Below are positions 17,243 through 51,550 of a DNA stretch of 64,000 nucleotides, in pieces (position 1 is the first letter of the stretch; every line of letters begins with the position of its first letter). Source of the stretch: an uncultured Gemmatimonadota bacterium (GTDB lineage: Bacteria > JAAXHH01); assembly GCA_951812955.1 (NCBI GenBank), contig OX638340.1:2816001-2880000 (forward strand), given 5' to 3'. The notes below the pieces were generated by a model, which was not told the DNA's origin, did not search any database, and saw only the letters and a program-made list of their open reading frames with translations. A program made the position numbers and the translations under genes.

Positions 17243-17934
17243 GTGACCCCGTTTTTACTTTCTGCAACCGCTACTTTTTTGAAAAAAATGAAATAAAATG
17301 TTGACTAAGAATCGGGCCGAATATATACTTATAACTCGCTAAACGGAGCATAGTTAAACACATCCGAACCATAGCCAGCGCAACACCTTATGCGGGGCCG
17401 TGTACAATGTCAAGGAAGATTTGGCGGCAGACGCGGGTGTGCAATGGGTATGATAGCGCGATGGATACGGACCGTGTTATGCAATTCGTTTCAGACCATG
17501 ACGAAGGATGAAGTTATTTTCGTGTTATTCGTCGTACGCAACCATTCCACGCAGATGGCAGAATTCGGCCAATGGTCTCGTATTGCTTAGAGTCCCATAG
17601 GGTTTCGGATTCAGCCAGGTGCGCGGTGGCGGAACGCTGGAAATCTGGCACGTTGTTTGCATTTGAAGGTTACTCGGATTCCTCGAACTCAAAATCGGTT
17701 TTTCGTTGCGTGTTCATGCCCTTGCACGCGACGGTTTGTATGTCGTTTCTTATGTAAAGGTATTTACGATTATCTATATTTATACGATTGCCCCACTACC
17801 ATCGCTGGAGGGAGGTGAGTGTCACGGAGTAAGGTTGTAGAATTCAAAGTCGAGAGAGCAATACTACGATACCGTCAGCAGGCCGGGGCAAGCTGACAAT
17901 AATCAGAAGGGCTCTGTTAATGAGGAGTGAATTG
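17243..17934. promoter_or_regulatory. ~690-bp AT-rich divergent intergenic island between thrC and the TonB-dependent receptor gene; contains a sigma-70-like TTGACT-N17-TATACT element near 17310-17345 oriented toward the receptor gene
   Basis: Sharp local drop in GC against the ~63% background. No convincing protein-coding ORF: the two listed ORFs (17390-17590, 17572-17757) are short and anonymous. Long enough to hold a 5' leader or riboswitch for the downstream receptor gene. Confidence 0.4.
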
Positions 17935-20900
17935 ATGTCTATAACAATTTCACGAGCTTTGCGCTTCGCATTCGCTTTCGCGTTAGTGCTCAGCATCTCG
18001 ACGGATGCACTGGCGCAGTTGTCGCTGGGTAAAGTTTCCGGTGTCGTGGTCGACAGTGAGACGCGGGAACCGCTGCCGGCAGCCAGTGTCCAAATCGAGG
18101 GCACGGTTTTGGGTGCGATGGCGAATGACATGGGCGAGTACTTTATTCTTAACGTACCGCCCGGCAACTACACCGTGGTGGTGAACGTCATCGGTTATGT
18201 CCCGGTGCGTGCCATAGGTACCGAGGTACACGCCGACTTGACCACGACGATGCACTTCGAGCTGGATTCGACGATTCTCGACTCCGCCGAAGCGGTCGAG
18301 GTCGTGGCGACACGGGATCTGGTCGAGAAGAGTCTCACTTCCACCCGGACCATCGTGGCGGCCGAGGAAATCCAGGCGCTGCCGGTGACCAGCATCGCCG
18401 AAGTGGTTCTGACCACGGCGGGCAGTTTCGGCGGCCGGCTCCGCGGCGGCGAAGCCAATCAATCGCAGACCACGCTGGACGGTTCAACAGTGACCGGGCA
18501 GCGAACTAATGAAAGTCAGGCGTTTGCGATCAACCCCTACATGATCCAGGAACTCGAGGTCAAGACGGGAACGTTCAACGCCGAGTACGTGAACGCGTTG
18601 GCCGGGATCACTTCGGTGGTTACCCGTGAAGGCGGTGCGAGTTACAACGGTAACTTCGAATACCGCACGTTGGGCCAGAAGGGTCTGAATTGGGCCAAGC
18701 CGCCCGAACTCGACATCGTGGACGCGTACCGCGCCGGAACCTGGTCGGAAGCCGACTTGCGCAAGGTCATTCAGGACGCGATCGACAAGACGAACGAGTT
18801 CAACAGTGATCCCGCACGCGCGGAGGACGGACTCAGGATGCAGGATCCCTTCGACGTGCTGGACATGACCGGAGCCCCGGATAGCTGGTCCGCCATCTAC
18901 AAGCGGGACAACTATTATTGGGATTACGACCGCGTCATTCCCGAACCCGAAGCCATCACGTGGTCCTACCTGACCGACGGATTGCCGGAAGCCCAGGCCA
19001 ATAGTTTCGCGGTGGACCGGTCTTTCCATCCTGATAAATACAACCAGTTCGCCCAGAACAACCGGACCGAGAAACGTCCGGTACAGATTGACTTCGGTAT
19101 GGGCGGTCCACTGGGCGACAAGCTGAACTGGTTCGCGTCGGGACGTTTCGCGGAGAGTTGGGGTCGCAATCCCGACGATTACATCCGTGTGATGAACTCC
19201 TTCATCAAGATGACCTACCGGCCTACCGTCAGCACCAAGGTGACCATGTCCGGACTCATCGAAGACACGGGTTTCTTCAGCAAGAAGGGCCAGCGGGGCT
19301 CAGCCAGCGTCGGCGGAACTTTCGACCCCGGTGCCTCGAACTATGGTTGGAAGTACAATAAAGAAGGTCTCAACCAGAATTTCGGCGGCCGAGTGCATGT
19401 GAATGCGTCGTTTACCCAGACGCTCAGTCCCCGTACCTTCTACGAGATCCGGTTTAGCCACCTGCGCGAGTACAACGAGCGCTATAATCCCAAGTACGGC
19501 AAGGAACCGCTGCCGTCCCTCACCGACGCGTTCATCCACTCCGTTGGATATTCGCCGCTCGAGCAGGGTAGCGGCACGCAGGTACCTTATATCCTGTACG
19601 GCGATGAGGCTTACTCCTCGATCGATTTCGGTAACTACACGAGTCGACGCCCGTTCAAGACCGACGTCAGCTTCGCCATTACAAGCCAGGTCACCTCGAA
19701 TCACCAGTTCAAGGGCGGCTTCGGTGTTGTGATGAATGATTATGAAGAGAACACGCGCGGTCCAGCCCGTGGAAACGCCGTGACGCTCTTCAACGATCTG
19801 AATCGGGATCCAACTGCCAGCGTACTGCCCCTCGCAGGACGCCAGGCTCACGTGTATCCGTTCGAATTATTCGCGTACATGCAGGATCGGATCGAGTACG
19901 GAAGCCTTGTGGTAAACGCGGGAGTGCGGCTGGACATGTTCGACGCCAACGCCAACGCGATCAATCCTTATCGTCCGCGTCCGGGCCCCGATCCCGAACA
20001 CGACGATCCGGAATACCGCACGCTTGCTCCGTCGATGAAGACGGGTCTCGCGCCGCGCCTGGGTATCTCCCATCCGATCACGGATCGCGCCGCGCTGCAT
20101 TATTCGTACGGTATCTTCAACCAGCGTCCCTCGCTGGAGAACCTGTTCACCGGTCTGGTTCAAACCTCCTCGTTTGAGCGCAACCACGGAAACCCGGATC
20201 TGCCGTTCCAGAAGTCCACGAACTACGAAATGGGTCTGCAGGCCGAGGTCTATCCCGGATACTATCTGGACGTTACCGGTTATTTCCGGGATGTTAACAA
20301 CCTGCCGCTGGTATGGCTCTTCGCGCCGGACGTAGCCTTCATCGGCGGTTCGCAGCGCGAAATCTCCATCCTGCTTCCGACTTTCGCACAGGATACGCGG
20401 GGACTCGAGGTGTCGTTACGGCGCCAGATGGCCAATCGGTTCTCATTGCGGGCCAATTACACCCTGGCCTTCACATCCAATCTGACCACGCCCCAAACGG
20501 TCCGTGAACGCGGCGGCGAGACGGTGCTCGTGTTCTCCGACTTCGTGGACGGAACACCGACGCCCGATACCTACATCCGCGAATTCACCCAGTTCGACCG
20601 ACGACATCGGATCGTAACGAACCTCCTGGTCGAGCTGCCCTACGGCATCAGCGCTTCTGTACTGACCAAGGCGCAGAGCGGCAACCAGTACCGCACGTCC
20701 AGCGAGCAGGCAATCGATCCGCTCGGTTTGCTTGCCGCATCGCAACGCTCGCCCTGGACGTGGACGAGCGACCTGTACGCCCAGAAGAATTTCGATCTGG
20801 GTAACGTACGCCTCGGCGTGTTCGCCCAGGTCAATAACATCTTTGACCGAGTGAACATCTACAGCATCACCGGTGGCTCTAACAACGCGAGCGGCGACCG

Positions 20901-21012
20901 CTGGCAACGCCGGGGAGATCCCGTCGGTCTCACAGGCGGTCCTGTGGGCGGAATCGGCACGCAGGCCAACGGTCCTCGTGACATCTGGTTGGGTCTCAAC
21001 TTAGCATGGTAA
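17935..21012 (+). CDS. TonB-dependent outer-membrane receptor with N-terminal carboxypeptidase-regulatory-like domain
   Basis: Signal peptide (ALRFAFAFALVLSISTDALAQ). Cna-B/CarbD-reg-like beta-sandwich (VSGVVVDSETREPLPAASVQIEG...GEYFILNVPPGNYTVVV). Plug-domain region (TSIAEVVLTTAGS...QTTLDGSTVTG). ~850-aa barrel ending in aromatic W (LGLNLAW). GAGGAG RBS 7 nt before ATG 17935. Confidence 0.8.
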   Translation: MSITISRALRFAFAFALVLSISTDALAQLSLGKVSGVVVDSETREPLPAASVQIEGTVLGAMANDMGEYFILNVPPGNYTVVVNVIGYVPVRAIGTEVHADLTTTMHFELDSTILDSAEAVEVVATRDLVEKSLTSTRTIVAAEEIQALPVTSIAEVVLTTAGSFGGRLRGGEANQSQTTLDGSTVTGQRTNESQAFAINPYMIQELEVKTGTFNAEYVNALAGITSVVTREGGASYNGNFEYRTLGQKGLNWAKPPELDIVDAYRAGTWSEADLRKVIQDAIDKTNEFNSDPARAEDGLRMQDPFDVLDMTGAPDSWSAIYKRDNYYWDYDRVIPEPEAITWSYLTDGLPEAQANSFAVDRSFHPDKYNQFAQNNRTEKRPVQIDFGMGGPLGDKLNWFASGRFAESWGRNPDDYIRVMNSFIKMTYRPTVSTKVTMSGLIEDTGFFSKKGQRGSASVGGTFDPGASNYGWKYNKEGLNQNFGGRVHVNASFTQTLSPRTFYEIRFSHLREYNERYNPKYGKEPLPSLTDAFIHSVGYSPLEQGSGTQVPYILYGDEAYSSIDFGNYTSRRPFKTDVSFAITSQVTSNHQFKGGFGVVMNDYEENTRGPARGNAVTLFNDLNRDPTASVLPLAGRQAHVYPFELFAYMQDRIEYGSLVVNAGVRLDMFDANANAINPYRPRPGPDPEHDDPEYRTLAPSMKTGLAPRLGISHPITDRAALHYSYGIFNQRPSLENLFTGLVQTSSFERNHGNPDLPFQKSTNYEMGLQAEVYPGYYLDVTGYFRDVNNLPLVWLFAPDVAFIGGSQREISILLPTFAQDTRGLEVSLRRQMANRFSLRANYTLAFTSNLTTPQTVRERGGETVLVFSDFVDGTPTPDTYIREFTQFDRRHRIVTNLLVELPYGISASVLTKAQSGNQYRTSSEQAIDPLGLLAASQRSPWTWTSDLYAQKNFDLGNVRLGVFAQVNNIFDRVNIYSITGGSNNASGDRWQRRGDPVGLTGGPVGGIGTQANGPRDIWLGLNLAW

Positions 21013-21101
21013 ATCCAACGCGGGAAGACGCGCAGTTAAAAGGTGTCTTCCCGCCAGGTTGGCGACGTTCGCAGAACGTTGCCGGCATAAGGAGGTTCAT
21101 T

Positions 21102-24100
21102 TTGAAGAAATGGCGTCGATATGTAACAGCCGGAGCTGTCGTGTTTACGACGGCGATCGCCTTGGGGGTCGCACAATACCTCACGGCGTTGCCGGACGCA
21201 CCGGCAAGATCCTCGGCGACTCAGGGGTCTCCGATCCCGAACGAACTCGCCCTGGATTCAAGGCAAGATGCCTATATCGGCGGTCAGACCTACATGGCCG
21301 TCATGAATTCGGAACTTACCGACACCTACACTGGCGTGGGCTGGCGGGGTTCGGGCCGTTCCATGAGTCCCACGATGGGCTTTCCTTCGTACACCTTTCC
21401 CGCAGGTGGGTTGGACGCGCCGCTATGGGCGTCGGCTATGGGTATCACGGCTTATCAGCCCAACGCTGTGGCCGGTATGCCCATCAGTCGCGCCGAAGGT
21501 GATTTCATCGGCACCACCAACGTCTATCGCGCGCCGCCTCATCAGCGTGAACAGGCCCCGCAAGGCTTCTGGTCAGATCAGGGCGGATCGAGCAGCCCGG
21601 GTTTTGCCGGTGGAACCGTGGGACCGGGTGGTTACCGTGAGCCCTTCATAACGGAAACGACCTTCAATACGAACGCGGGTATTCGGGTCCAGCGTCAGTC
21701 GTACAGCTTCAGCTACGGCTACGGCCATACGAATGACTTCATCCTGTTGCGTCACGTGCTGAATGTTCACGGTGAGGTAGACGTAAATCAGGATGGTATG
21801 TTAGAAGAGGGTCAGAATGGCGGAGTTACGATCAGGAACTTCCTGATCATTTTCAACTATGACTTCGACATTCCCTGGACCAACAACCCCCTCCTGACCG
21901 GTGGGGCGATCGGCGGCGGTACAGGCGGTGACGACAAGCAGCCACCTGCCATGTTCAGCCGAGTGATGCCTCGCGCCGTACCGGAGGGGCTGATCAATTC
22001 GGGCCGATACAACCAGGCTCCGTACAGCGACCGGTTCTATTCCGGCCTGGTCACCATGTTCGACGAGGACGATCCGGGTCATCCGGGCATCGACTCCTAC
22101 GTATGGAACACGACCAACGGTAACTTCAATCCGTTGCACGTGGGCGAAGCTTCGTTGATTGTGCTTGAAGGCTCCGGCGATGAAGATCCGCTCGGGGACT
22201 TGAACAACGCCGCTGCGCTTGATATCTACGATGCGCCTTCAGTCGGCCTGTTCAATACCCATGAATGGTGGATCGCTGACCTGAGAACTGTTTTCGGATG
22301 GTACGAGGGTTCGCTTACCAAGTACCTGGAGAACAAGACGGTCAACGTGCCTGGCGGCAGCAGCGCACCGCATCCGGATCTTTTCACCAGTGGCAGTCCG
22401 CTTGAAAGAAATACCGATATCAGTACCTGGACCGCCAAGACGCAGGCTGGTGGATCGGCCGAGGGCATGGGCCTGAAGTGGGGCGACCCGCGCAATCTGA
22501 CCCAACCCGGCAATCCTGGTACGGCCGCCATAGGTCTGCAGCCAGGTCAGTACGATAGCATCACGCTCTTCGATCTCGATGGCGTGTTTGCCGGCATCGT
22601 GCCTGATCCGTACAACGGCAGCGACACGAAGGACGAGACCTCCGGCGCCGGTTGCATCCGGAACGCTCTTGGCTGGGGACCCTACACCAAGGCACCCGGC
22701 GAAGATCTTAGCATCTGGCATGTTGACCTGATAGGGGCCGGTAAAGACGGCGCCTACGACGTTTACCTCCGCGCGCAGGACGTCTGGATGCAGCGGAAGT
22801 ACAACATGGCCAACAACACGTACTACTGGGACGGTTCCAACGACCGCATCATCCCCGTGTATAACGCGGATGGTTCCATCGCTCGGGACGGTGCCGACGA
22901 AGCCATGACCGTTACGCACAACTTCGGTCGCGGTGCTGCCAGCGGCGCGCTGTTCCATCCGGCGCCTCCTCCTACCCTGTCGGTCTTCCCGACCGCCAAC
23001 GGTACGATCGCGCTGGCGTGGGCCAACAATGCGGAAACGGCTATCGATCCGGGCCGGGGCGTTGTGGATTTCGCGAAGTACCGCGTGTACCGCGCTTCCG
23101 GTTTCATCGATCAGTTCCCGACCGCTACGGTCGCCCATGAAGTCGGTTACAATAGTACGGTGATCCCGCCGAATCTCGGTCTGAGCGAAGGTGCGTCCGC
23201 GATTACGGACGTGACCGATCCGACGACCGCAGCGGTAAAGCAGGGCCATCCGTACGCCCGGTTCATCCATGAAGGCCTTACGCTCGGTGCCGACTACAAC
23301 ATCGGTCGGGTATACGACTTCGTGGCTGACGACCTGGTTAAGCGCTTCGCGGCGCCTAACTTCTCGGGACCGTACGTCCAGATCGCTGAATTCGGCGGTG
23401 GCGGCGGCAATCAGACCAACAGCCTGAATCCGCCAGAATCCGTATCGTATCCGAATCCGTATCCGGCGGGAAGCAGGATTCCGGGCTTCGAGGATGATTT
23501 TATCGAAACCACGCCGAGTTCGACACAGATCGTTCAAGCGAACAACGACTTGGGCGCCACGACGGCTATCGCGACCAGTTTCTCTGATCGCTATCCTGAT
23601 GCAGTCGGATCAGGCGATGCGCAGATTACCAGTGTCGGCGGTATTCTCGCGGATCCCCGCCTGGTCGGCAAAAGCGGTTATATGTTCGAAGATCGTTCGG
23701 TGCTGATTGGGTTCAGCTACTGGTACTACGTGGCCGCGGTAGATAACGAAAGCGCGCAACAGCACGATTTCGACAACTACGTAGCCGATCAGGGCTCGTC
23801 CCAGCGGGTAATCACCCGTACCATCAACGGGCTCGAGAGTTTCTACACGATGAACGCAAACGGGACGGATGGACGGTGGCACGGTCAGTATCCCTACCGG
23901 GGTCTGTCAGTGGGGCCGCAGGTACCGGGACAGGACGTCGTTCCGACGACCGTGGCTCGTAACGAGGTGGCAGGCGGTGTGGCGGAATTCGAAAATCTGA
24001 TGACCGTCGCCCCCAACCCCTTCGTTTTCCAGGCCCAGTGGGATCTGGCAACGAAGTCGCAAACCGTCAAGTTCTTCAACGCTCCGGTACCATCCCGCAT

Positions 24101-24305
24101 CACGATCTTCGACTCGGCCGGCCTTCAGGTTAAGCAGTTCTCAGTGCCTGGCGACCAGACCACGACGATCGGCGGTGTGACGGACTGGGATCTGAAGAAC
24201 GATTCCAACGTACCTGTTTCCAGCGGTCTGTACATCTGCGTGGTCGAAGCCGAAATTGGCGGCGTGAGCTACGCGAAAACGTTGAAACTCTACGTCCGGC
24301 GGTAA
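21102..24305 (+). CDS. Large secreted protein with type IX secretion system (Por) C-terminal sorting domain; function unknown
   Basis: The last ~90 aa match the T9SS CTD / Por_Secre_tail pattern: APNPF..., TVKFFNAPVPSRITIFDSAGLQVKQF, WDLKNDSNVPVSSGLYICVV, KTLKLYVRR. N-terminal signal peptide after TTG start 21102 (AGGAGG 7 nt upstream). FN3-like segment (YRVYRASG). No catalytic motifs recognised. Confidence 0.75.
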   Translation: MKKWRRYVTAGAVVFTTAIALGVAQYLTALPDAPARSSATQGSPIPNELALDSRQDAYIGGQTYMAVMNSELTDTYTGVGWRGSGRSMSPTMGFPSYTFPAGGLDAPLWASAMGITAYQPNAVAGMPISRAEGDFIGTTNVYRAPPHQREQAPQGFWSDQGGSSSPGFAGGTVGPGGYREPFITETTFNTNAGIRVQRQSYSFSYGYGHTNDFILLRHVLNVHGEVDVNQDGMLEEGQNGGVTIRNFLIIFNYDFDIPWTNNPLLTGGAIGGGTGGDDKQPPAMFSRVMPRAVPEGLINSGRYNQAPYSDRFYSGLVTMFDEDDPGHPGIDSYVWNTTNGNFNPLHVGEASLIVLEGSGDEDPLGDLNNAAALDIYDAPSVGLFNTHEWWIADLRTVFGWYEGSLTKYLENKTVNVPGGSSAPHPDLFTSGSPLERNTDISTWTAKTQAGGSAEGMGLKWGDPRNLTQPGNPGTAAIGLQPGQYDSITLFDLDGVFAGIVPDPYNGSDTKDETSGAGCIRNALGWGPYTKAPGEDLSIWHVDLIGAGKDGAYDVYLRAQDVWMQRKYNMANNTYYWDGSNDRIIPVYNADGSIARDGADEAMTVTHNFGRGAASGALFHPAPPPTLSVFPTANGTIALAWANNAETAIDPGRGVVDFAKYRVYRASGFIDQFPTATVAHEVGYNSTVIPPNLGLSEGASAITDVTDPTTAAVKQGHPYARFIHEGLTLGADYNIGRVYDFVADDLVKRFAAPNFSGPYVQIAEFGGGGGNQTNSLNPPESVSYPNPYPAGSRIPGFEDDFIETTPSSTQIVQANNDLGATTAIATSFSDRYPDAVGSGDAQITSVGGILADPRLVGKSGYMFEDRSVLIGFSYWYYVAAVDNESAQQHDFDNYVADQGSSQRVITRTINGLESFYTMNANGTDGRWHGQYPYRGLSVGPQVPGQDVVPTTVARNEVAGGVAEFENLMTVAPNPFVFQAQWDLATKSQTVKFFNAPVPSRITIFDSAGLQVKQFSVPGDQTTTIGGVTDWDLKNDSNVPVSSGLYICVVEAEIGGVSYAKTLKLYVRR

Positions 24306-24369: not shown

Positions 24370-25353
24370 ATGAAAGTATTTGTACGCTGGGGCGTGGTTA
24401 CCGGATTGCTGATGGCACTGTCAGCGCCGGTACATGCTCAGGTTTCCAAGGGTGGAACCGCCGCGACGAAATTTCTGACGCTTGATTCCAGCGCTCGTGT
24501 CGCGGGTGTTGCATCCTCTGCCACATCCTACACGGATCTTGGCGCTTTCTCTGCTCTGACGAATCAAGCCACCATGGTGTTCGTCGAGGGTAGAGGAGCA
24601 GTCGGCGTTTCCTATACACCGTATTTCGCGGAAATGACGCTGTTCAGTGCCGGTCTGGTGTGGAATCTCGGCGATAACGGCGCCGTGGGTCTGAGTGTGC
24701 ATTCGCTGCTTTCGGGCGACATACCCTATACCACATCCGGTGATCCGACGGGTCAATTTGCCACAGCTGGCCAGAACTTTTCCGTGTCTGACCTGGCCAT
24801 CGGTCCGAGTTATGCGCGTCGACTGACGGATTCATTCGCCGTCGGCGGATCGTTGAAGTATATCTCGGAAGGCACGAGCGGCGCTGGAGATGACGACCGT
24901 ACCAGCACAGCGGTCGCGGTGGACGTGGGTACGATTTACACCACGGATTTCCGTAATTTCCGTATAGGCGCCTCGTTCCAGAATTTTGGTCCGGACATGC
25001 AATTCATCGATGAATCGAGTGCTCGCGACCAGTTGCCTACGACGTTCCGTATCGGTTTTGCCGCTGAGCCGGCCGAACTGCCGACGGGAAGCGTGATGCT
25101 CAGCGCAGAGCTGTGGAAACTCCGCGAGTACGATTCAGTACTCAATCTGGGTATCGAGTGGTGGGTTAACGATTATATCGCGGGACGGGTTGGCTGGAAA
25201 GCCGGATACAGCGGCGGCCAGGATGAAGGCGTATCCGCCGGCGCAGGTCTCCGGTTCAGCCAGGGTGAATTGAGTCTCAACGTTGATTACGCGTATACGC
25301 AGTTTGAACTTCTGGACGATCTGCATCGCGTGTCCGTAGGTGTGGGCTTCTAA
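24370..25353 (+). CDS. Outer-membrane beta-barrel protein, PorV/PorQ (T9SS shuttle) -like family
   Basis: Signal peptide (LLMALSAPVHAQ). N-terminus VSKGGTAATKFLTLDSSARVAGVASSAT resembles the conserved PorV/UPF0164 start (G-t-AA-FL-i--gARa-gMGgA). Alternating amphipathic strands and a C-terminal aromatic residue (GVGF). Lies directly downstream of a T9SS-CTD cargo gene. Confidence 0.5.
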   Translation: MKVFVRWGVVTGLLMALSAPVHAQVSKGGTAATKFLTLDSSARVAGVASSATSYTDLGAFSALTNQATMVFVEGRGAVGVSYTPYFAEMTLFSAGLVWNLGDNGAVGLSVHSLLSGDIPYTTSGDPTGQFATAGQNFSVSDLAIGPSYARRLTDSFAVGGSLKYISEGTSGAGDDDRTSTAVAVDVGTIYTTDFRNFRIGASFQNFGPDMQFIDESSARDQLPTTFRIGFAAEPAELPTGSVMLSAELWKLREYDSVLNLGIEWWVNDYIAGRVGWKAGYSGGQDEGVSAGAGLRFSQGELSLNVDYAYTQFELLDDLHRVSVGVGF

Positions 25354-25471
25354 ACAAAAGGCCAGAGCGTACGGATGGATGTAAGAATATCGTTAGTTTG
25401 AAGTACCAGGAGAATCCCTCAGTCCGTTTGATGAGGGATTCTCTTATGTAGTGAAAGAATTGAGGACGCTG

Positions 25472-27379
25472 ATGGGATTGAACGTGAGACGAAATATCAC
25501 ATACTGTTATGCATTAAAGTTTGTTGTAATCGTTTGTATGGCGGCTGCCTGTGTGTTGACCGGCCTGGACGCCATGGCCATACAGTTAAGCGGCACAGTG
25601 ACCGATGGGAAGGATCCCGTGCCGGGTGTCCGAGTTCGAGAACACGGTAAACCGAATTTCGTTGTGACCGATTCAGAAGGCAGATTCACCCTCAACATCA
25701 CCGAAGAACCCGTGCAGCAGTACGCCATAACGGCCGGTAAGGAAGGCTGGTTGAACGGCGGGGTCATGGTGGATCGAAAAACATCATATACGACGATTAT
25801 TATACAAAAAGTACCTGAAGAAATAGACACCTCGTACGATTTCATTACCCCCCACAAATCCCTGGTCGATCTGCGCGAGGAGCCGGAAGAGCTGGAGAGA
25901 CTCCGCGCGCAATCGCACACGGGCTTCGAGGAGGGGTGCAACCTCTGTCATTTCGAGCCGACCTGCTACCTCTGCCATAGAGATCTCTACGATCAATGGA
26001 GCACTTCGCAACACGCGAAGGGTGTCGACAACCCGTGGACGTTGAATCTTTACGATGGTACTGATGCGGACGGGAACGAAAACGTGGGACCGGGATTCAG
26101 GCTGGATTTTCCTGACGAAGCCGGAGAATGCGCCGATTGCCACGCGCCGTCAGCAGCTGTCGACGCGCCAGGGAAGACCGACTTGAAGGTAGTATACAAT
26201 CGTTCGCTGGCTTATCCGACCGTCCAGGACTACAAGACGCTCGAACGCATGGAATACGAAAGACTTGCCGGCTCGGTCGATGCCGCGGGAATTCACTGCG
26301 ATTTCTGCCACAAGATTCAAAATGTGGAAGTCAATGATCACGCGGGGGTAAATGGATCCATCACGCTGAACCTGGTGGCCATGGAAGAGGAAAAGCAGGC
26401 CCGGCTCATCAAGGGGAAGTTCCCGCCGATATTCGTGTACGGACCCTATGACGATGTTATAAATTTCACCCCATTACCGGGTTCATCCAACACCTCACCC
26501 ATGGTGGCGAGCTACAATCCGATCTACACGAGCAGCGACTACTGCTCCGCCTGCCACCAGCACAAAAACAAGCACGGCCTTCCGTTCATGGATACGTACC
26601 AGGAGTGGAAGGATAGTCCCTATTCCGCCATGGGCATAGAATGCCAGGACTGCCATATGAAGCCGGAGTCCGACGGTTTCACCTTTGGTTCTTTCGTGAA
26701 CGGCGACGCGGAGAAGTTCTGGACACCCATCGGATACCGGGACCCGACAACCGTTAAAACGCATGGGTTTCCGGGGGCCACAGAGACGCTCCTGCCGAAC
26801 GCCGCGACCCTGGCCATCAATTCCGTTGTTTCCAATGGACTGTTGACGGTGACCGTTGACGTGCGTAACGTCAATACGGGGCACCATATACCTTCGGGTA
26901 TCACCATCAGGAATATGCTGTTGCTCGTTACGCCCGTTCTGGCGAATGGAGATACCTTGCGTTACGTGGGGGACCAGCGTGTTCCGGTTTACGGCGGCGA
27001 AGGCGACCCGGCCGAAGGAAATTACGCGGGCTACCCGGGTAAGGGATTCGCCCTGGTTTTCGGTGATGACGCCGGCAACACCCATGTCATGGACTGGCAG
27101 GCGACCCGCATTGTCGAGGACACGCGAATCAAGGCGCGAGAGGCAGATCGTTCCGTATATACATTTGAAGTACCATCGGACATCGAGCGCGTGGATGTTC
27201 ATACGGATCTGATTTATAGAAGAGCATTCAAACCGTTGGCCGATCTCAAGAAGTGGACGCAGAAGGATATGAACGTGGCGTCGGACATCACCACGGTAAG
27301 GCCAGTTGGACAACTCGAAGTTTCCACTCCTTCGAAAGGACTGAGCCTCCGCGATCGTATCAGATCCTACTTCGATTGA
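25472..27379 (+). CDS. Multihaem c-type cytochrome (6 CxxCH motifs) with N-terminal carboxypeptidase-regulatory-like domain
   Basis: Six haem-binding motifs read directly: CNLCH, CYLCH, CADCH, CDFCH, CSACH, CQDCH. Signal peptide after ATG 25472 (GAGGA RBS 5 nt upstream). CarbD-reg-like beta-sandwich GTVTDGKDPVPGVRV...DSEGRFTLNI. Large non-haem C-terminal half. Confidence 0.75.
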   Translation: MGLNVRRNITYCYALKFVVIVCMAAACVLTGLDAMAIQLSGTVTDGKDPVPGVRVREHGKPNFVVTDSEGRFTLNITEEPVQQYAITAGKEGWLNGGVMVDRKTSYTTIIIQKVPEEIDTSYDFITPHKSLVDLREEPEELERLRAQSHTGFEEGCNLCHFEPTCYLCHRDLYDQWSTSQHAKGVDNPWTLNLYDGTDADGNENVGPGFRLDFPDEAGECADCHAPSAAVDAPGKTDLKVVYNRSLAYPTVQDYKTLERMEYERLAGSVDAAGIHCDFCHKIQNVEVNDHAGVNGSITLNLVAMEEEKQARLIKGKFPPIFVYGPYDDVINFTPLPGSSNTSPMVASYNPIYTSSDYCSACHQHKNKHGLPFMDTYQEWKDSPYSAMGIECQDCHMKPESDGFTFGSFVNGDAEKFWTPIGYRDPTTVKTHGFPGATETLLPNAATLAINSVVSNGLLTVTVDVRNVNTGHHIPSGITIRNMLLLVTPVLANGDTLRYVGDQRVPVYGGEGDPAEGNYAGYPGKGFALVFGDDAGNTHVMDWQATRIVEDTRIKAREADRSVYTFEVPSDIERVDVHTDLIYRRAFKPLADLKKWTQKDMNVASDITTVRPVGQLEVSTPSKGLSLRDRIRSYFD

Positions 27380-27478: not shown

Positions 27479-29095
27479 ATGCGCAATATCCTTCTCGCAG
27501 CCTTTCTGCTTTACACCCCTCTGCTTACGGACACCGGTCCATACCTCACGTACATTTCCACCGTCCGTCAGGATGAATCGTCCAGGCAAATTTCGCCCGA
27601 GGATGAGAGCCGTCTGCTTGAAGACGTGATGTATTTCCGGCAGCAGATTGAGCAGAACAGGAGCGAACCCGCCAACTACTTCAATCTGGGTCTCGCGGCC
27701 GTTGCCCTGGACAAGCTGGCCACGGCGGAAGCGGCATTCCAGGTTGTCACCAGTTTGCGCCCCGGAGATGTCGACGCTCATTTCAACCTGGGTATGGTTT
27801 ACGCCCGGCAGGACCGGTACGACGAGGCGATCAAGGCATTCAGCCGAGTTGTGGAAATGGATCCCGAGCGTGCAGAACCTTACTACAACCTCGGCCGGGC
27901 CTATCAGATATCTGGAATGCTGGTGGAATCCATAAAATCTTTTGTTAAGGCAACGACGCTGGACCCCGACAACAGCCTGTTTCAGTACGGTCGGGGGACA
28001 ACGGAAGAGAAGATGGGCGCCCTGGGGGAGGCCGCCGTTTCCTATTCCAATGCCATATCCATCGATCCGGAATTCGTCGACGCCCGGTATGCGTTGGGAC
28101 GCGTACTGTTGGATCAGCGGAAATTCCAGGAAGCCCGGGATGCCTTTCGCGAAGTGCTGCGCGTAGATTCCGGCAAGGCGGAGGCATACTGCCAACTCGG
28201 TGTGATCGCGCTGAGCGAAGGCCGTGTCGACGATGCGGTCCGGGCGTATGAGAACGCCAGGCAGATAGATGAAGCATCGGTGGAGGCCATCGCGGGAATT
28301 GCCCAGGCTTCGTTGCGTGCGGGACAGACTGAACGGGCGGTATCGCTGTACCAGCAGGCCTTAACGATAGATTCAGAATCGCCTACCCTGCATTACCATG
28401 CGGGCACGGCTTTCGCGGCCGCCGAGCGCTATGAAGAAGCGTTGGACGCCTTTGCGGGTGCGATAGAACGCTATCCGGAGTATCCCGAGCCCTACCTGTC
28501 GATGGGTAACACGCTCAACGCCCTGGGGAGGGGGGATGACGCCGGGCCGTTTCTCGAAGCGTTCCAACGGCTCAACGCGTTCAAGGAGGAGTTGTCGCAG
28601 GCGGAAGCCTTGGTACGCCTGAATCCGCGGGTAGCGGAGGTACATTACAACATGGCAACGGCCCTGACCCAGCTGGGCCGGTACGAGGATGCCGTGCGGG
28701 AATTTCGGATCGCCACGGAACTGGCGCCTCGTTTCGTTCACGCCTATAACAACCTCGGCGTCGCCTATGTTCAACTCGGCAAGTTTGACGAAGCCCGCGG
28801 CGCCTACCAGCAATCGATCCTGCTGGATTCGACCTACGTAGAGGCCTATACGAACCTGGCATGGCTCTTTGCCGAACACGGCGAAAACCTGGACCGTGCC
28901 CTGGAGCTGGCCGACAGGGCGGTCGAGATGGCTCCTACGGTCGTCTCCTACGAAACGCTGGCGGTCGTGCGGAACGCGGGAGGGGATTATGCCGGGGCCG
29001 ATGCGGCTATGCGGAATGCAATCCGTATCGAACCTGATAACGAGGTATTGCGGCAACGTTGGGAGCGGATCAGGCAGGAAAGGAACGGATCATGA
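27479..29095 (+). CDS. Tetratricopeptide-repeat (TPR) protein, exported
   Basis: N-terminal hydrophobic leader, then >10 consecutive 34-aa TPR units with the A/Y/F-x-N-L-G consensus (e.g. AHFNLGMVYARQDRYDEAIKAFSRVVEMDP, EPYYNLGRAYQ..). Confidence 0.7.
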   Translation: MRNILLAAFLLYTPLLTDTGPYLTYISTVRQDESSRQISPEDESRLLEDVMYFRQQIEQNRSEPANYFNLGLAAVALDKLATAEAAFQVVTSLRPGDVDAHFNLGMVYARQDRYDEAIKAFSRVVEMDPERAEPYYNLGRAYQISGMLVESIKSFVKATTLDPDNSLFQYGRGTTEEKMGALGEAAVSYSNAISIDPEFVDARYALGRVLLDQRKFQEARDAFREVLRVDSGKAEAYCQLGVIALSEGRVDDAVRAYENARQIDEASVEAIAGIAQASLRAGQTERAVSLYQQALTIDSESPTLHYHAGTAFAAAERYEEALDAFAGAIERYPEYPEPYLSMGNTLNALGRGDDAGPFLEAFQRLNAFKEELSQAEALVRLNPRVAEVHYNMATALTQLGRYEDAVREFRIATELAPRFVHAYNNLGVAYVQLGKFDEARGAYQQSILLDSTYVEAYTNLAWLFAEHGENLDRALELADRAVEMAPTVVSYETLAVVRNAGGDYAGADAAMRNAIRIEPDNEVLRQRWERIRQERNGS

Positions 29096-29120: not shown

Positions 29121-30248
29121 ATGAAGCGGGTGAAGTCCAGGGTGTTGCCGCTCCTGGCGGCGGCACTTGTGATGGGTTGCGCGGAAGCGGACGATGACGG
29201 GATGTGGCGTGGCAGAACGGAAGTGGTCGCGGGAGCCTCAAGGGTCATAAGCGATGCGCCAATCCGGCACTCACCCGATCAGACGGCAGACGTCACGCTC
29301 GAAGAGGACCTGGTGATTGATGGCGGCGAGGACCGGTCGTTCTCGTCGGTTTTCGGGATCACCACGGATCGGAACGGCAACATTTACGTGGCCGACTCGG
29401 AACAGAAGCGCATACAGAAGTTCGATGAAACCGGTTCGTTTCAGACGTCCGTAGGGTCGTCGGGCGTGGGACCGCTGCAGTTCAAATCTCCTGTGGATAT
29501 GGTGCTTGACAGCGAAGGGCGGTTGTTCGTACTGGACAGCGAACTCGACCGGGTCACGGTATTTAATCCGGACCTGAGTTTCGCCGACATCTGGCAAACG
29601 CAGGTTACGAAGCCCCGCCGCATACGTATAGACACCGAGGGTAACGTGCTTGTCTTCGTCATTACACAGCATGATCTCATCTACAAATTCAGTCCGAACG
29701 GCGATCCGATTGCGAAGTTCTACAATCCCATGGAAACCATGCGGCGTACCGGAACCCTGACAGAGTTCATTGCATATTCCGACGCGGCCATGGAGTCTAC
29801 AGAGGACGGGTACGTCGTCGTTTCCGCAAGACACCCCTACAAGATAAGTAAGTTTGACCGGGTAAACGGACTGGAATTGGAATTTTACCGGACCACTTCC
29901 TTTGATATGAAGCCGCTGGGACGGTGGACGAACACGCAGCATCCACCTCCCGTCGGCGTGTCCGGCGGCCTGGCCGTACTGCCCGACGGACGCATCATGA
30001 ACACCATACAGTACCAGGAATTCGAACAGGTGGGGTTGAACACCATGGGCATGCCCCAGTTGAAAATGACGAAAATGGATCGATGGTACGATTTTTTTAC
30101 TCCGGATGGCAAATGGGAAATGACCGCACAGTTCGCCGTGAGCGGAGTTCCCATGCACGTGGACCGGCAGGGCCGTATCTATTTCGCTGATTTGGCCGAA
30201 GACAGAGTCGTCAGGTACAACTTTGTTTTTCCTGAGGAGTACAACTAG
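29121..30248 (+). CDS. NHL-repeat beta-propeller lipoprotein
   Basis: Lipobox LAAALVMGC after ATG 29121 (GGAGAAG RBS). NHL repeats such as FGITTDRNGNIYVADSEQKRIQKFDETGSF and PVDMVLDSEGRLFVLDSELDRVTVFN. Confidence 0.65.
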   Translation: MKRVKSRVLPLLAAALVMGCAEADDDGMWRGRTEVVAGASRVISDAPIRHSPDQTADVTLEEDLVIDGGEDRSFSSVFGITTDRNGNIYVADSEQKRIQKFDETGSFQTSVGSSGVGPLQFKSPVDMVLDSEGRLFVLDSELDRVTVFNPDLSFADIWQTQVTKPRRIRIDTEGNVLVFVITQHDLIYKFSPNGDPIAKFYNPMETMRRTGTLTEFIAYSDAAMESTEDGYVVVSARHPYKISKFDRVNGLELEFYRTTSFDMKPLGRWTNTQHPPPVGVSGGLAVLPDGRIMNTIQYQEFEQVGLNTMGMPQLKMTKMDRWYDFFTPDGKWEMTAQFAVSGVPMHVDRQGRIYFADLAEDRVVRYNFVFPEEYN

Positions 30249-30775
30249 TGCGCGTCATCCTGACAGGAATCCTTCTGACGATTACGGCCCTGGCTTGCGA
30301 AATGGCTCCAGAGGAAGAGCAGGTGGCCGGGGGCACATTCGTCGGCTATACATTTTCCGAACAGGCCGTCGTCGACACCGCGCTCGATATGGAAGCTGGA
30401 TATACACTGACCTTCAAAGCCTACGATCTTGGCGGCGACGCGCGGTTCGTGGTCTATGTCCAACGGAAGATCTCGGGCGAGTATTATGCCGGGGTTGTTA
30501 GGCTGGGCATCGTCGATCCGCAGGGCAACGTATACACGTACTACCACAGCGCCGAAGCCGAAGCCATAGACCGTCCGATCATGTGGACCCGGCGCGTGCC
30601 GGGCGTACACAACGTCGAAGTCGAGTTCAACGTGCGCGGAGACCAGAAGGTGCGTACCTCCTTCGAAGTCCCACTGATAAGGGAACCGGTATCGGGCTTT
30701 CTCGTCGCCGGCGTCAGTCTGGGCGTTTTGGTCCTCGCGGGCTTGACCCTGGTACTCATAAGAAGACGCCGTTGA
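30248..30775 (+). CDS. Small lipoprotein with additional C-terminal transmembrane anchor and poly-Arg tail (possible sorting signal)
   Basis: GTG start overlapping the upstream stop (taGTG). Lipobox ITALAC at the N-terminus. C-terminus REPVSGFLVAGVSLGVLVLAGLTLVLIRRRR has the tripartite layout (short motif, hydrophobic helix, basic cluster) of exosortase/sortase-type C-terminal sorting signals. Confidence 0.5.
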   Translation: MRVILTGILLTITALACEMAPEEEQVAGGTFVGYTFSEQAVVDTALDMEAGYTLTFKAYDLGGDARFVVYVQRKISGEYYAGVVRLGIVDPQGNVYTYYHSAEAEAIDRPIMWTRRVPGVHNVEVEFNVRGDQKVRTSFEVPLIREPVSGFLVAGVSLGVLVLAGLTLVLIRRRR

Positions 30776-30794
30776 CACGACGCTGATCGGTCGC

Positions 30795-32603
30795 ATGGAC
30801 GCTGGGAGGATCGGTAGTCTCATGCATGCTTTATTCAGGGTTGCGGCGTCCCCGTGTTCCCGATTTAGGGCGTCCCCGTGTTCCCGGTTTGCGGTATTCT
30901 TCCTTTTCCCGTTTCTTTTCCTTTCCTGCGACCTTTCCAATAGCCCTCCGGATGCGACGCGCCCGGAGATGCTCTTCACGGACATCGCGCCTTCCTCCGG
31001 AATCTCGTTCCGTCATGCCAACGGGAAGACCGGCCAATACTACTTCCTTGAAACGGTGGCGTCCGGTGGTGGATTCGTCGATTACGACGGGGACGGCGAC
31101 CTCGACATCTACCTGCTCAACGGCTCGGCCATCCCGGGTTTCGTGCCGGACCTGCCCCTGTCCAACGCGCTTTATCGCAACGAAGGAGACGGATCCTTCA
31201 CGGACGTGACCGATCAGGCCGGCGTGGGAAATCCGGACGGTTACGGGATGGGCATGGCCGTCGCGGATTACGACAACGACGGCGACGACGACCTGTTCGT
31301 CACGAACTATGGGGAGAACATCCTCTATCGCAACGAGGGGAACGGGACTTTCCGCGACGTGACCGGCCGGGCGATGCCGCCGTTACCCCGCAGTCCGATG
31401 TTTTCGACCAGCGCGGCGTTCCTGGATTACGACCGGGACGGGCACCTGGACCTCTACGTGTGCGCGTACGTCGAATTCGACTTCGAAACCAACAAGCGAT
31501 GCATCCGGGACGGCATCCAGTCCTACTGCGGACCCGATATCTATGATGGGGCGGCCGATCTGCTTTACCGGAACAACGGCGACGGGACTTTTTCTGACGT
31601 ATCCTCGGAGGCGGGTATCGCCAATCCGGACGGAAAAGGACTCGGAGTCGTGGGGGGCGACTACGACGGCGATGGCTGGACGGATATATTCGTAGCCAAC
31701 GACCTGACGCCGGATTTCCTTTACCGGAACAACGGCGACGGCACGTTTACGGACATGGCGCTGCTGGCGGGCGTGGCCTATGGCGAGGATGGCGTCGCCC
31801 GGGCAGGCATGGGGGTAGATTTCGGAGACTACGACCGGAACGGGACGCCGGACATCTACGTGACCAATTTCTCCCTGGAACCCAACTCGTTGCACCGGAA
31901 CAACGGAAACGGCACGTTTACCGAAACCACCTTCGGTGCGGGCGTGGGCAATACCACGCTTCTTTCCCTGGGTTTCGGTACGGCCTTCAAAGATTTCGAC
32001 CACGATGGCTGGCTGGATATCTTCGCGGCGAACGGCCATGTGATCGACAATATCTCCCTGTTCGATCCGACGGTGACTTACGCGCAGACCAATCAACTGT
32101 TCCGGAACGAAGGAAACGGGGTTTTCACCGACGTCAGCGCCGGCGCCGGCGCTCCCTTCCACGTGGAGCGCGTGCACCGCGGCGCGGCCTTCGGAGACGT
32201 GGACAACGACGGTGACGTCGATATCCTGGTCACCACCGTGAACGACGTCCCACTGTTGTTGCGGAACGACGGGAACGAGCGGCCCGGTGGAAGCGGCGGT
32301 CCCACCAGTCTGCTCGTCGCCACCGAGGGCGTCCAAAGCAATCGCAACGGGATCGGTGCGCGCGTAACCGTGGTCACGGATGCCGTGCGCCAGTCGCGGG
32401 AAATCCGAAGCGCCTACAGCTACCTGGCGGCCAATGATCTCAGGGCGCACTTCGGGCTAGGTGCGCATGACGGGGCGGATTCGGTGATCGTGGACTGGCC
32501 GACCGGCACAAGGGATGTCGTAACGGGAGTCGATGGCGGCCAGTGGATCACGATCCGCGAAGGCGCAGGTATCGTCTCGCGAACGCCACTTCGCCCGCGT
32601 TGA
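30795..32603 (+). CDS. ASPIC/UnbV-domain FG-GAP (VCBS) repeat protein, CRTAC1 family
   Basis: Repeated FG-GAP/VCBS Ca-binding loops (VDYDGDGDLDIYLL, VADYDNDGDDDLFVTN, LDYDRDGHLDLYV, GDYDGDGWTDIFVAN...). C-terminal UnbV_ASPIC signature (NRNGIGARVTVVTD...AYSYLAANDLRAHFGLG...VIVDWPTG). True start is uncertain: the N-terminus contains a tandem-repeat-encoded ASPCSRF x2 and a lipobox-like FLSCD. Confidence 0.65.
   Translation: MDAGRIGSLMHALFRVAASPCSRFRASPCSRFAVFFLFPFLFLSCDLSNSPPDATRPEMLFTDIAPSSGISFRHANGKTGQYYFLETVASGGGFVDYDGDGDLDIYLLNGSAIPGFVPDLPLSNALYRNEGDGSFTDVTDQAGVGNPDGYGMGMAVADYDNDGDDDLFVTNYGENILYRNEGNGTFRDVTGRAMPPLPRSPMFSTSAAFLDYDRDGHLDLYVCAYVEFDFETNKRCIRDGIQSYCGPDIYDGAADLLYRNNGDGTFSDVSSEAGIANPDGKGLGVVGGDYDGDGWTDIFVANDLTPDFLYRNNGDGTFTDMALLAGVAYGEDGVARAGMGVDFGDYDRNGTPDIYVTNFSLEPNSLHRNNGNGTFTETTFGAGVGNTTLLSLGFGTAFKDFDHDGWLDIFAANGHVIDNISLFDPTVTYAQTNQLFRNEGNGVFTDVSAGAGAPFHVERVHRGAAFGDVDNDGDVDILVTTVNDVPLLLRNDGNERPGGSGGPTSLLVATEGVQSNRNGIGARVTVVTDAVRQSREIRSAYSYLAANDLRAHFGLGAHDGADSVIVDWPTGTRDVVTGVDGGQWITIREGAGIVSRTPLRPR
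30846..30893. repeat. 24-bp tandem duplication (gcgtccccgtgttcccgRtttRSg x2) in the 5' end of the CRTAC1-like ORF
   Basis: Copies at 30846-30869 and 30870-30893 with 3 mismatches; they encode the duplicated peptide ASPCSRF. Confidence 0.8.
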
Positions 32604-39476: not shown

Positions 39477-40322
39477 TCACGACCAGTCCCCGCAACCGAG
39501 AAACGTCATGTGCTTCCCGGCCTCGTACGCGGGAAACTTCCGATAGGTGTTGATTCCTTCGACGGGACTGCCGCGGAACAGGAAAAGACAGGGCCACTCC
39601 CGCGTGACCTTCGTCGTCGCGGGCATGTACTGGATCGAGCCGCCCCGCCTCCACGCGTTGCTCTCGTTCGGATTGGAACCATGCAACAGCAGCGGGTGAT
39701 GGACCGAGACGTCTCCGGGCGACAGGACCAGGTCGACCGCCTGGCTTTCGTCGAACGCTTCCGGATCGGCCTGGTTGAGGATGTAGTTGTCTGTGCTCTC
39801 CGGGGAGTGGCTGTGCAGACCGGATCTGTGCGATCCGGGGATCACGCGGACACAACCATTGGAGGGCAACGAGGCGGTGATGGCGAACCAGACGGTAATG
39901 ACCTCCAAGGGCTCGAGGGGCCAGTAGTGGCCGTCCTGGTGCCAGTGGACGCCCCTGCCCCTTCGGGGCGGCTTGCAGATGTAATCCGCCGCGAAAAAGG
40001 CCACGTTCGGACCGACCAGGGCTTCCGCCACGTCCAGCAGGTTGCGGTCGCTGAGGAAACGCACCCAGAAGGGATCGCCGGCTATGAGCCAGTGTCCCAA
40101 CGATTCGGGAGGCAGATCGGGGTGGCGGTCCATCAACCAGTCGATATGCCGGTCCGCCTCTCGAATCAGTCCGGCGGGCAGGACATTACGCACGATGACG
40201 AAGCCGTCCCGTTCGTAGTCTTCTCCGATGTCCTGAATTTGTGGATAAGTAAACTCAGCCACGCAGTCTGACCTCGAGTACGGACGGTCGATCCCTGTCC
40301 GGAAGACCGTCCGCTGATCCAA
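39477..40322 (-). CDS. Phytanoyl-CoA dioxygenase (PhyH) family Fe(II)/2-oxoglutarate-dependent oxygenase
   Basis: HWHQDGHYW (HxD facial triad), VWFAITASLPSNGCVRVIPGSH (distal His). PhyH-type N-terminus DGFVIVRNVLP. Confidence 0.7.
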   Translation of the reverse strand: MDQRTVFRTGIDRPYSRSDCVAEFTYPQIQDIGEDYERDGFVIVRNVLPAGLIREADRHIDWLMDRHPDLPPESLGHWLIAGDPFWVRFLSDRNLLDVAEALVGPNVAFFAADYICKPPRRGRGVHWHQDGHYWPLEPLEVITVWFAITASLPSNGCVRVIPGSHRSGLHSHSPESTDNYILNQADPEAFDESQAVDLVLSPGDVSVHHPLLLHGSNPNESNAWRRGGSIQYMPATTKVTREWPCLFLFRGSPVEGINTYRKFPAYEAGKHMTFLGCGDWS

Positions 40323-40528
40323 AGAACTGCTTGCGGTAAACCTTATTAATGACGATTAAACTAGAACATTACATCCGGGACAAGTTTATTGTATACATAC
40401 CGTTCGTACTGCGGATTTTTAGTAGGATGTGCCGAGTGAATCCGTTGATGACCAACCGGTTCCATACCATTTAGCAATCAGGCCGCGTTTCTGATTTTAA
40501 AATCTTTGCCCTTACCAGAGTAAAACAC

Positions 40529-42244: not shown

Positions 42245-42366
42245 GCCTAAAACTCCGCGGAATTAAAACGAATGGCTTGAGTTACTGTTCCGATCAAACC
42301 AATATCGTGTAGTTTGGTCCGTTGTGGTCTCTTTCGTGTCACTATGGTGATGACGCGCGCGGCATG

Positions 42367-43584: not shown

Positions 43585-43588
43585 GATT

Positions 43589-44827: not shown

Positions 44828-44838
44828 TGCGCGGCGGA

Positions 44839-45729: not shown

Positions 45730-45771
45730 GGTGGAGACGAACTCCGGTACGGTCAGGTGACTGGAAGGGAC

Positions 45772-45863
45772 GCTCCGCACAGCGCAATTTCCCGCGACCG
45801 TGCAGCGCGATTTTCTGCTCCGCACAGCGTAGTGTCCCGCTCCGCTCAGCGCAGTTTCCCGCG
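45772..45863. repeat. 3-4 degenerate ~23-bp direct repeats (gctccgcacagcgYaRtKtcccgcg) spanning the stop of the DSD1-like gene and the TauD upstream region
   Basis: Copies at 45772-45796, 45818-45840 and 45841-45863 plus a decayed copy between; the DSD1-like stop (45846-45848, minus strand) lies in the last copy. Confidence 0.7.
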
Positions 45864-46934: not shown

Positions 46935-47145
46935 AGTTCGTTCCTCTCTTGTGGCCTTTACTGATCCAGTCGTCGATCAACCTTAACCTCGACAGCGGAT
47001 TCCGACAGAAACAGATATTACACAGAACTGATTATTCGTGATTTTCAAAGCTATGCAGACTGCTAATTGTGTATCATATCGGTACCGCCCGTCAAGGACG
47101 TTAAGCGTGTCTCGGCTGACGGCCGCAATCCTTCTTTCCCGCGGT

Positions 47146-50051: not shown

Positions 50052-50161
50052 TAGCTTGGCAATTCGGCACGCGAAGCGAAACGCTCCTTGAGAGCGGTCC
50101 GAAGCGAACAAGCTGTCCTGTCCCTGCCGACCCTGCCGTACGCGCGCAAGGTCCCGATCAC

Positions 50162-51547: not shown

Positions 51548-51550
51548 GGC

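Follow-up and report, generated by a model that had tools for sequence, protein, structure and literature searches.

A small protein with a predicted lipid anchor and a C-terminal helix anchor, encoded in a conserved eight-gene envelope operon of Latescibacterota

We analyzed 64,000 nucleotides (nt) of DNA from an uncultured Gemmatimonadota bacterium (contig OX638340.1, positions 2,816,001 to 2,880,000; this whole stretch is called the window below), and focused on a small gene that lies directly downstream of a gene for an NHL beta-propeller lipoprotein. The small gene encodes a protein of 175 amino acids (aa). We suggest that this protein is probably a bitopic inner-membrane lipoprotein whose C-terminal helix is a permanent stop-transfer anchor and not a cleaved signal, and that it serves as an accessory subunit partnering the NHL protein. 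Its family is new and unannotated, yet of an ordinary kind: a membrane-anchored periplasmic beta-sandwich.

The open reading frame (ORF), at 30248-30775 on the plus strand, is a genuine gene. It begins with GTG (30248-30250), and the TAG stop codon of the NHL gene (30246-30248) overlaps this start by 1 nt, giving TAGTG. An earlier note on this DNA had described the two genes as translationally coupled, and the overlap bears this out. Independent gene callers placed the same 1-nt TAGTG overlap in loci L001, L003, L004, L006, L032 and L035, and a pattern script, run on the window and 31 loci, found GAGGAG followed by TAGTG in 16 of these 32 sequences, a count in which internal Met codons can mislead the script. 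In L037 the overlap is 4 nt. The G+C content at the three codon positions of the small gene is 0.65/0.41/0.70 in a window of 61% GC, which is the pattern of a coding frame. We considered whether the ORF could be a shadow of a 246-aa ORF on the minus strand (30245-30985). This was rejected because codon-position GC and 54 homologues back the plus strand; it is the minus-strand ORF that is the shadow.

The 54 homologues are 44-100% identical to the small protein and 166-203 aa long, except for three truncated sequences. An exhaustive profile search of 1.84 billion representatives added very few clusters to these, and 24 loci, one per genome, came out of a pattern scan that covered 185,579 species genomes. 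These 24 metagenome-assembled genomes are labeled Latescibacterota, "Gemmatimonadetes/Gemmatimonadota", Zixiibacteriota or plain "bacterium", and several of the isolate names suggest an origin in sponge or coral metagenomes. The small protein represents a conserved family confined to a sponge- and marine-associated Latescibacterota clade. More divergent relatives outside the core clade are L037, L030, P0066, P0067 and P0070. No Pfam or NCBIfam family matched the protein above its cut-off, and Pfam gave 0 families at E<=0.1.

We found that the N-terminus has the features of a lipoprotein signal. The sequence MRVILTGILLTITALAC (...TALAC) fits a lipobox pattern of the PROSITE PS51257 type, which calls for Lys or Arg in the n-region, an uncharged h-region, Ala, Gly or Ser at -1 and Cys at +1, all within the first 35 residues. 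Cys17 is invariant across 49 aligned sequences. The segment before it is variable (conservation 0.41), and it always consists of a short basic n-region and a hydrophobic stretch ending at Cys17. The strict pattern was satisfied by 41 of 66 relatives, the remainder having xPGC or FICC variants or truncated N-termini, and the residue at -1 was A, G or S in 51 of 63. The pattern and the invariant cysteine support the lipoprotein signal (ITALAC) that the earlier note had read here, with Cys17 as the predicted lipidation site.

The C-terminus contains a motif, a hydrophobic span and a basic tail, in that order. In the motif VPLIREP, the core clade shows no variation at V141, P142, L143, R145, E146 and P147 (majority fraction 0.96). 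Outside it the REP portion drifts, to RQP in P0066, P0067 and L037, to REGP in P0070 and to FEP in L030. Residues 148-171 are 24 uncharged, mostly hydrophobic residues, and the span is exactly 24 residues long in 62 of 63 relatives. The best 18-residue stretch of the tail has a mean Kyte-Doolittle value of 2.5, AlphaFold2 modeled a helix at 150-174 (predicted local distance difference test, pLDDT, 83-95), and G155 is conserved in at least 90% of sequences. The basic cluster after the helix is RRRR or RKRR among the relatives. This tripartite architecture, described in the earlier note, is therefore present and conserved. Together with the lipobox, the helix and basic tail imply dual anchoring, by lipid and by helix, as had been predicted from the sequence.

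We found little to indicate that the tail is a sorting signal. Known sorting signals are recognized by a near-invariant motif, a short helix and a basic cluster, by their use as a modular tag, and by a co-occurring enzyme (PMC1569441, PMC3237569). When the full protein was compared with NCBIfam, the only match was to Rumino_NPXTG (15.9 bits, cut-off 23.5). We also scanned nine isolated tails of the family. These gave scattered weak matches to NPXTG, GlyGly, MYXO, LPXTG, Heimdall, Loki and PEP models, and every alignment was confined to the helix and the basic residues. The best match to PEP_CTERM (TIGR02595, cut-off 16 bits) scored 11.7 bits and began at model position 6-8, so that helix and tail were aligned and the motif was not; the window's own tail had no PEP_CTERM match listed. 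GlyGly_CTERM (TIGR03501, cut-off 15.5 bits) gave 14.1 bits for the window's tail, from model position 4, and 13.9 bits for a second tail, from position 2. One of the nine tails passed the LPXTG model TIGR01167 (19.0 bits against 15.9), over model positions 13-33 only, again helix plus tail. There is no LPXTG-like motif before the helix of the small protein, and no sortase (PF04203) among the 35 window proteins scanned with Pfam. Since many unrelated sorting models match equally weakly, the match appears to be generic. The motif and the span also differ from those of PEP-CTERM proteins. The first Pro is missing (the tail has I/V-R-E-P), and the hydrophobic stretch is 24 residues long in contrast to 14 in PEP-CTERM (PMC1569441), although a basic cluster corresponding to the ~5-residue PEP-CTERM cluster is present. 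The suggestion in the earlier note that REP could be a variant of PEP finds no support in a motif that lacks the first Pro and drifts to RQP, REGP and FEP.

Neither a modular spread of the tail nor an accompanying enzyme was found. In the 64-kb window plus ~590 kb from 31 related loci, a C-terminal helix with a basic tail occurs on only one genuine ORF, that of this family, so the other proteins with the same tail that the earlier note had asked about are not there. PEP-CTERM genomes, in contrast, have a median of 8 instances each (PMC1569441). A query of the 40-residue tail against a collection of 5.8 billion proteins returned 2 candidates, none of them scored, the word index being unsuited to a short hydrophobic query. 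We found no sortase-class enzyme in the window or in the conserved neighborhoods (>30 loci, with flanks of 10 kb), which were the reach of this search, whole genomes lying outside it. No gene for a rhomboid-like or other polytopic protein occurs inside the conserved operon in these loci, whereas in genomes with a single rhombosortase target the enzyme gene lies within one gene of the target in 16 of 21 cases (PMC3237569). The multi-transmembrane proteins of the window are a CDP-alcohol phosphatidyltransferase, a Wzx-type flippase and a chromate transporter only. Two papers on Latescibacteria genomes (PMC12993501, PMC4454575) make no mention of exosortase, PEP-CTERM, the type IX secretion system (T9SS) or sortase. 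In its sequence features the tail looks like an ordinary permanent anchor rather than a sortase-type sorting signal. If this is true, it is a caution that a motif, helix and basic tail on a single orthologous family are no proof of a sortase-type system.

Between the two predicted anchors, AlphaFold2 modeled an eight-strand beta-sandwich (residues 42-143) with pLDDT ~90, the same from alignments of 26 and of 49 sequences. Residues 15-35 had pLDDT <50 in both runs, and the 49-sequence alignment brought no gain. The GGTFVGY block is conserved yet unmodeled in the monomer, which suggests that it becomes ordered only on a partner. The three most conserved blocks of the protein are GGTFVGYxxSE in the linker after the lipid, an AYDLG loop, and VPLxREP next to the membrane; the first and third adjoin the two membrane anchors. 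Residues Y52, D60, G62, Y70, R85, G93, T97, D108, P110, W113, G119 and P142 are invariant superfamily-wide, a set that includes neither H100 nor E146. These residues would be compatible with a binding surface for metal, glycan or protein. Foldseek found no match in the PDB at E<=0.001, and a profile search of all PDB sequences gave 0 matches at E<=10. The modeled immunoglobulin (Ig)-like sandwich can be superposed on P19, Tp34 and FtrA.

We propose that the small protein would be exported by Sec through its N-terminal signal, then lipidated and cleaved at Cys17 by Lgt and LspA, as the lipobox suggests. The domain of ~100 residues would fold in the periplasm. From its length and composition, and by the positive-inside rule (established; cited in PMC1569441), the Gly-rich helix is expected to remain in the inner membrane, and the RRRR that follows it to lie on the cytoplasmic side. 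The domain would then be stapled at both ends to the outer face of the inner membrane and so would probably not be handed over to the Lol pathway. The three conserved blocks are candidate docking surfaces for a partner. The NHL protein appears to be the likeliest partner because the two genes overlap by 1 nt and the two families have the same phylogenetic distribution. Through it, the small protein could tether the periplasmic and outer-membrane parts of an envelope module to the inner membrane.

Some observations weigh against this proposal. VPLxREP is better conserved than the domain (0.96 compared with 0.74), which exceeds what a passive anchor needs and would look like a recognition site. 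The lipobox is non-canonical (xPGC, FICC) in about a third of the relatives, and P0070 has no lipobox at all. Locus L036 has an otherwise intact operon without the small gene, so that the small protein would be accessory and not an essential structural link. Finally, an electron-transfer role for the operon is drawn by analogy only.

B. subtilis CtaC and QoxA are lipoproteins that have transmembrane helices too. In CyoA the helices come directly after the lipidated Cys and the soluble domain is C-terminal. The small protein differs in that the lipid and a single C-terminal helix flank its soluble domain, and it has no homology to these proteins. Lipoproteins of this sort are known but uncommon, CyoA and YiaM being two of 114 predicted in E. 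coli (PMC7139219). The likeness is that proteins of the CyoA/YiaM type keep a lipobox Cys and a transmembrane helix in the mature form, are retained in the inner membrane and are subunits of larger complexes. If our proposal is true, the small protein is a clean added example of a lipoprotein with a helix anchor as well. By itself it is unlikely to surprise a specialist.

The small gene is the seventh of eight genes on the same strand (Table 1), whose order is conserved at identities from 45% to 100%.

Table 1. Coordinates in the window of the operon genes and of the features of the small protein.
Feature	Positions	Strand	Remarks
TonB-dependent-receptor-like outer-membrane barrel	17920-21012	+	CarboxypepD_reg and Plug domains; first operon gene
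1099-aa protein	21006-24305	+	No known family; T9SS type-A C-terminal domain (CTD)-like tail; operon gene two
PorV/PorQ-family outer-membrane protein	24370-25353	+	NCBIfam PorV_fam 187 bits, cut-off 90; Pfam PorV
Hexaheme c-type cytochrome	25451-27379	+	N-terminal CarboxypepD_reg-like domain; six CxxCH
TPR protein	27479-29095	+	538 aa; position conserved
NHL six-bladed beta-propeller lipoprotein	29121-30248	+	375 aa; lipobox LVMGC; Pfam NHL 43 bits, DUF5128
GAGGAG, Shine-Dalgarno-like hexamer	30234-30239	+	Within 3' end of NHL gene, 8 nt before GTG; kept ahead of the overlapping start in most loci
Small protein gene	30248-30775	+	175 aa; seventh operon gene
Signal peptide and lipobox	30248-30298	+	aa 1-17, MRVILTGILLTIT-ALA-C; Cys17 is predicted lipidation site
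Linker motif GGTFVGYTFSE	30329-30361	+	aa 28-38; most conserved block, majority fraction 0.93-0.98
Predicted periplasmic beta-sandwich (Ig-like) domain	30371-30676	+	aa 42-143
Juxtamembrane motif VPLIREP	30668-30688	+	aa 141-147; end of last strand and linker to helix
Predicted transmembrane segment	30689-30760	+	aa 148-171, 24 residues, Gly-rich, G155xxxG159
Predicted cytoplasmic basic tail RRRR	30761-30772	+	aa 172-175; R172 invariant
FG-GAP/ASPIC-UnbV (CRTAC1-like) lipoprotein	30795-32603	+	Lipobox FLSC; FG-GAP_3 187 bits, UnbV_ASPIC 62 bits; last operon gene

The operon is an unusual mix, with a TonB-type barrel, a T9SS-tailed protein, a PorV paralogue and a cytochrome together. The gene for the 1099-aa protein shares 7 nt with the TonB-receptor-like gene upstream. 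The last 109 aa of that protein match TIGR04183 at 19.1 bits (cut-off 23), with weak matches to the C-termini of PorU and PorZ, and its CTD-like end reads ...NPFVF...ITIFDSAGLQV...WDLKNDSNVPVSSGLYICVVE...KTLKLYVRR. We considered whether the small protein could itself be T9SS cargo and rejected this: it ends in a transmembrane helix, has no beta-sandwich CTD of ~70-80 residues and has no Por_Secre_tail match. The cytochrome has CxxCH motifs at residues 163, 172, 227, 283, 365 and 398, and all six are kept in 15 of 15 loci. Among named families it resembles only ExtKL, and weakly so (64.8 bits, cut-off 250). A CarboxypepD_reg-like domain is common to the N-termini of the cytochrome and of the TonB-type receptor.

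The NHL orthologues form ~49 clusters with identities of 49-98%, below which there is a drop to 29% for generic NHL proteins. This family has the same breadth as the small-protein family and shares its host contigs. Among the divergent relatives, the small genes of P0066, P0067 and L037 follow the upstream gene with an overlap of 1 nt or 4 nt, the upstream gene being NHL for P0067 and L037. In L036 (7441-10479), which has the most divergent NHL orthologue (49% identity), the order is PorV-cytochrome-TPR-NHL-ASPIC without the small gene. The gap between NHL and ASPIC is 12 nt there, and no remnant of the small gene is present in any frame. L036 is thus a natural "deletion" variant of the operon. 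P0070 (L033 1348-4705, also in L034) is the most distant full-length relative. It has REGP before the helix. Its gene is flanked by one for a 519-aa NapH/MauN-like ferredoxin-type membrane protein and one for a DAO-family FAD oxidoreductase, and a TPR gene is located upstream. These neighbors indicate that the beta-sandwich-plus-helix module also occurs in a different redox gene context.

Clusters of multiheme cytochrome, beta-barrel, NHL and TPR genes have been described in extracellular electron transfer (bioRxiv 10.1101/2022.05.06.490989, PMC10734462). The porin-cytochrome clusters, such as Uet of Tenderiales/Gallionella and those of D. ferrophilus, resemble the operon in the co-location of a multiheme cytochrome, one or more barrels, an NHL propeller and a TPR protein, and PCC3 also includes a conserved inner-membrane protein. 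They are alike in gene content only. The operon has TonB-receptor-like and PorV-like barrels and just one six-heme cytochrome, and it adds the T9SS-tailed 1099-aa protein and the FG-GAP/ASPIC lipoprotein. If our proposal is true, it draws attention to a conserved and entirely uncharacterized envelope operon of eight genes in Latescibacterota associated with sponges, corals and seawater, an operon in which a hexaheme cytochrome is linked to outer-membrane components of the T9SS and TonB types. This operon is more interesting than the small protein, and could be a route for electrons or metal across the envelope of this uncultured phylum.

A possible, though unlikely, function for the small protein is metal handling. 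The beta-sandwich would then be an Fe and/or Cu domain of the P19/FetP/FtrA/Tp34/CrdA type at the membrane surface, where a metal ion, or the electrons from its oxidation, would pass between the hexaheme cytochrome/TonB-receptor module and the inner membrane. Being a proposal about function, it does not conflict with a permanent anchor. D60, D90, D108, Y52, Y70 and Y99 are invariant and H121 nearly so, and the operon has both a TonB-type receptor and a multiheme cytochrome. FtrD of the FtrABCD system is a NapH-like polyferredoxin, and the position of P0070 next to a NapH-like membrane ferredoxin is reminiscent of it. P19 binds Fe/Mn through an acidic patch (PMC9174327). Against these points, the small protein has no detectable sequence relation to P19/FetP/FtrA/Tp34/HftA or CrdA, as the empty Pfam and PDB profile searches indicate. 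It lacks conserved Met and Cys residues as well as a His cluster, and the His/Met ligands of the Cu sites are unrecognizable. Distant relatives have Arg in place of H100, and P0070 has Tyr in place of H121. The known proteins lack a C-terminal transmembrane helix, and the operon contains no permease of the Ftr1/EfeU type.

It is also possible, and we think quite unlikely, that the protein is not a lipoprotein. The N-terminus would then be either a standard signal peptide that is cleaved off or a signal-anchor that stays uncleaved, the conservation of Cys17 would have a different cause, and the product would be a plain type-I or hairpin membrane protein that lacks the combined lipid and helix anchoring. 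The Leu of the lipobox is at -2 and not -3 (ALAC), which speaks for this, as do the roughly one third of relatives that fail the strict pattern (xPGC, FICC, IINC) and P0070, which without the Cys has a cleavage site of the AFA-H type. On the other side, Cys17 is the only invariant residue in a variable N-terminus and usually follows one of the small residues expected at -1. It is also the sole Cys of the window's small protein, and therefore has no intramolecular disulfide partner. The neighboring NHL and ASPIC proteins both begin with lipoboxes.

We consider it improbable that the small protein forms the inner-membrane end of an undescribed trans-envelope redox module of FCB-group bacteria. 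Such a module would comprise a T9SS-delivered surface protein, PorV-like and TonB-type barrels, the hexaheme cytochrome, and NHL, TPR and FG-GAP scaffolds, with the invariant motifs GGTFVGYxxSE and VPLxREP, both close to the membrane, as a specific docking or processing site. One sub-possibility within it is that VPLxREP, helix and RRRR form a new, family-dedicated sorting signal whose enzyme is encoded elsewhere.

Taken separately, a lineage-specific sorting or processing tail is very unlikely. An enzyme like an exosortase, a rhomboid or rhombosortase, or a CPBP protein or myxosortase, encoded elsewhere, would recognize VPLxREP and remove the helix, leaving the N-terminal lipid as sole anchor or re-attaching the protein elsewhere. 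The tripartite architecture and the conservation of the motif, invariant in the core clade and exceeding that of the domain, would fit such a tail. The helix is Gly-rich, as helices of rhomboid substrates often are, the GlyGly_CTERM score of the window's tail was only slightly below the cut-off, and an enzyme gene outside the window and the conserved neighborhoods would have been missed. With PEP-CTERM/exosortase (EpsH, TIGR02595) systems the small protein shares a C-terminal Glu-Pro motif at the predicted outer face of the membrane, a hydrophobic helix and an Arg-rich tail; its organism is of the Gram-negative type, and a gene for an exopolysaccharide flippase is close by. With GlyGly-CTERM/rhombosortase (TIGR03501) substrates it shares a basic C-terminus and a helix that begins with a Gly-rich stretch (VSG...AG...LG).

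There are also differences. As described above, the model matches are below cut-off for both systems, cover helix and basic part only, and are no better than those of unrelated sorting models. The span is fixed at 24 residues, and both Glu146 and Arg145 are replaceable, by Gln and by Phe, in relatives. PEP-CTERM tails occur on many unrelated proteins, whereas in the window and the 31 loci this tail was seen on a single orthologous family, for which the genome scan gave one locus in each of 24 species. No exosortase or rhomboid gene is nearby in >30 loci. GlyGly-CTERM, as described in PMC3237569, ranges over Shewanella, Vibrio, Acinetobacter and Ralstonia, not FCB-group bacteria. The sorting machinery that is linked to the operon is T9SS-like, namely the PorV-family protein and the CTD-like tail of the 1099-aa protein. 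The claim that the protein is a substrate of an exosortase, rhombosortase or archaeosortase is thus left without support, and a permanent helix anchor remains the reading we prefer. Within the sequence searched, both absences that the earlier note named as reducing the tail to a simple transmembrane anchor, that of a sortase-class enzyme and that of other proteins with a similar C-terminus, were observed. A TonB-like or anti-sigma role for the small protein was rejected because its cytoplasmic part is four residues long and it has no Pro-rich linker.

Some further features of the window were noted. A short way downstream of the small gene, at 30846-30893 (+), are two tandem 24-nt copies (gcgtccccgtgttcccgatttagg / gcgtccccgtgttcccggtttgcg). 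They are located in the 5' region of the longest FG-GAP/ASPIC ORF, where they would encode ASPCSRFR-ASPCSRFA. Gene callers differ on the start of the ASPIC gene in near-identical contigs (593 aa or 544 aa), and the tandem repeat may therefore be a non-coding leader and not protein. At 49490-52801 (+), a gene for an XPB/Rad25-type helicase (ResIII, XPB_DRD, ERCC3_RAD25_C) is directly followed by one for a DUF790 protein, a helicase-nuclease pairing of the kind typical of archaeal XPB-Bax1. The region 39477-48777 encodes a PhyH dioxygenase, a family-5 solute-binding protein, an MR/MLE enolase-superfamily enzyme, a TauD/TfdA dioxygenase, a D-serine-dehydratase-like enzyme and a sulfatase. These genes would fit the scavenging of host-derived compounds, sulfated or organic, that has been reported for sponge symbionts.

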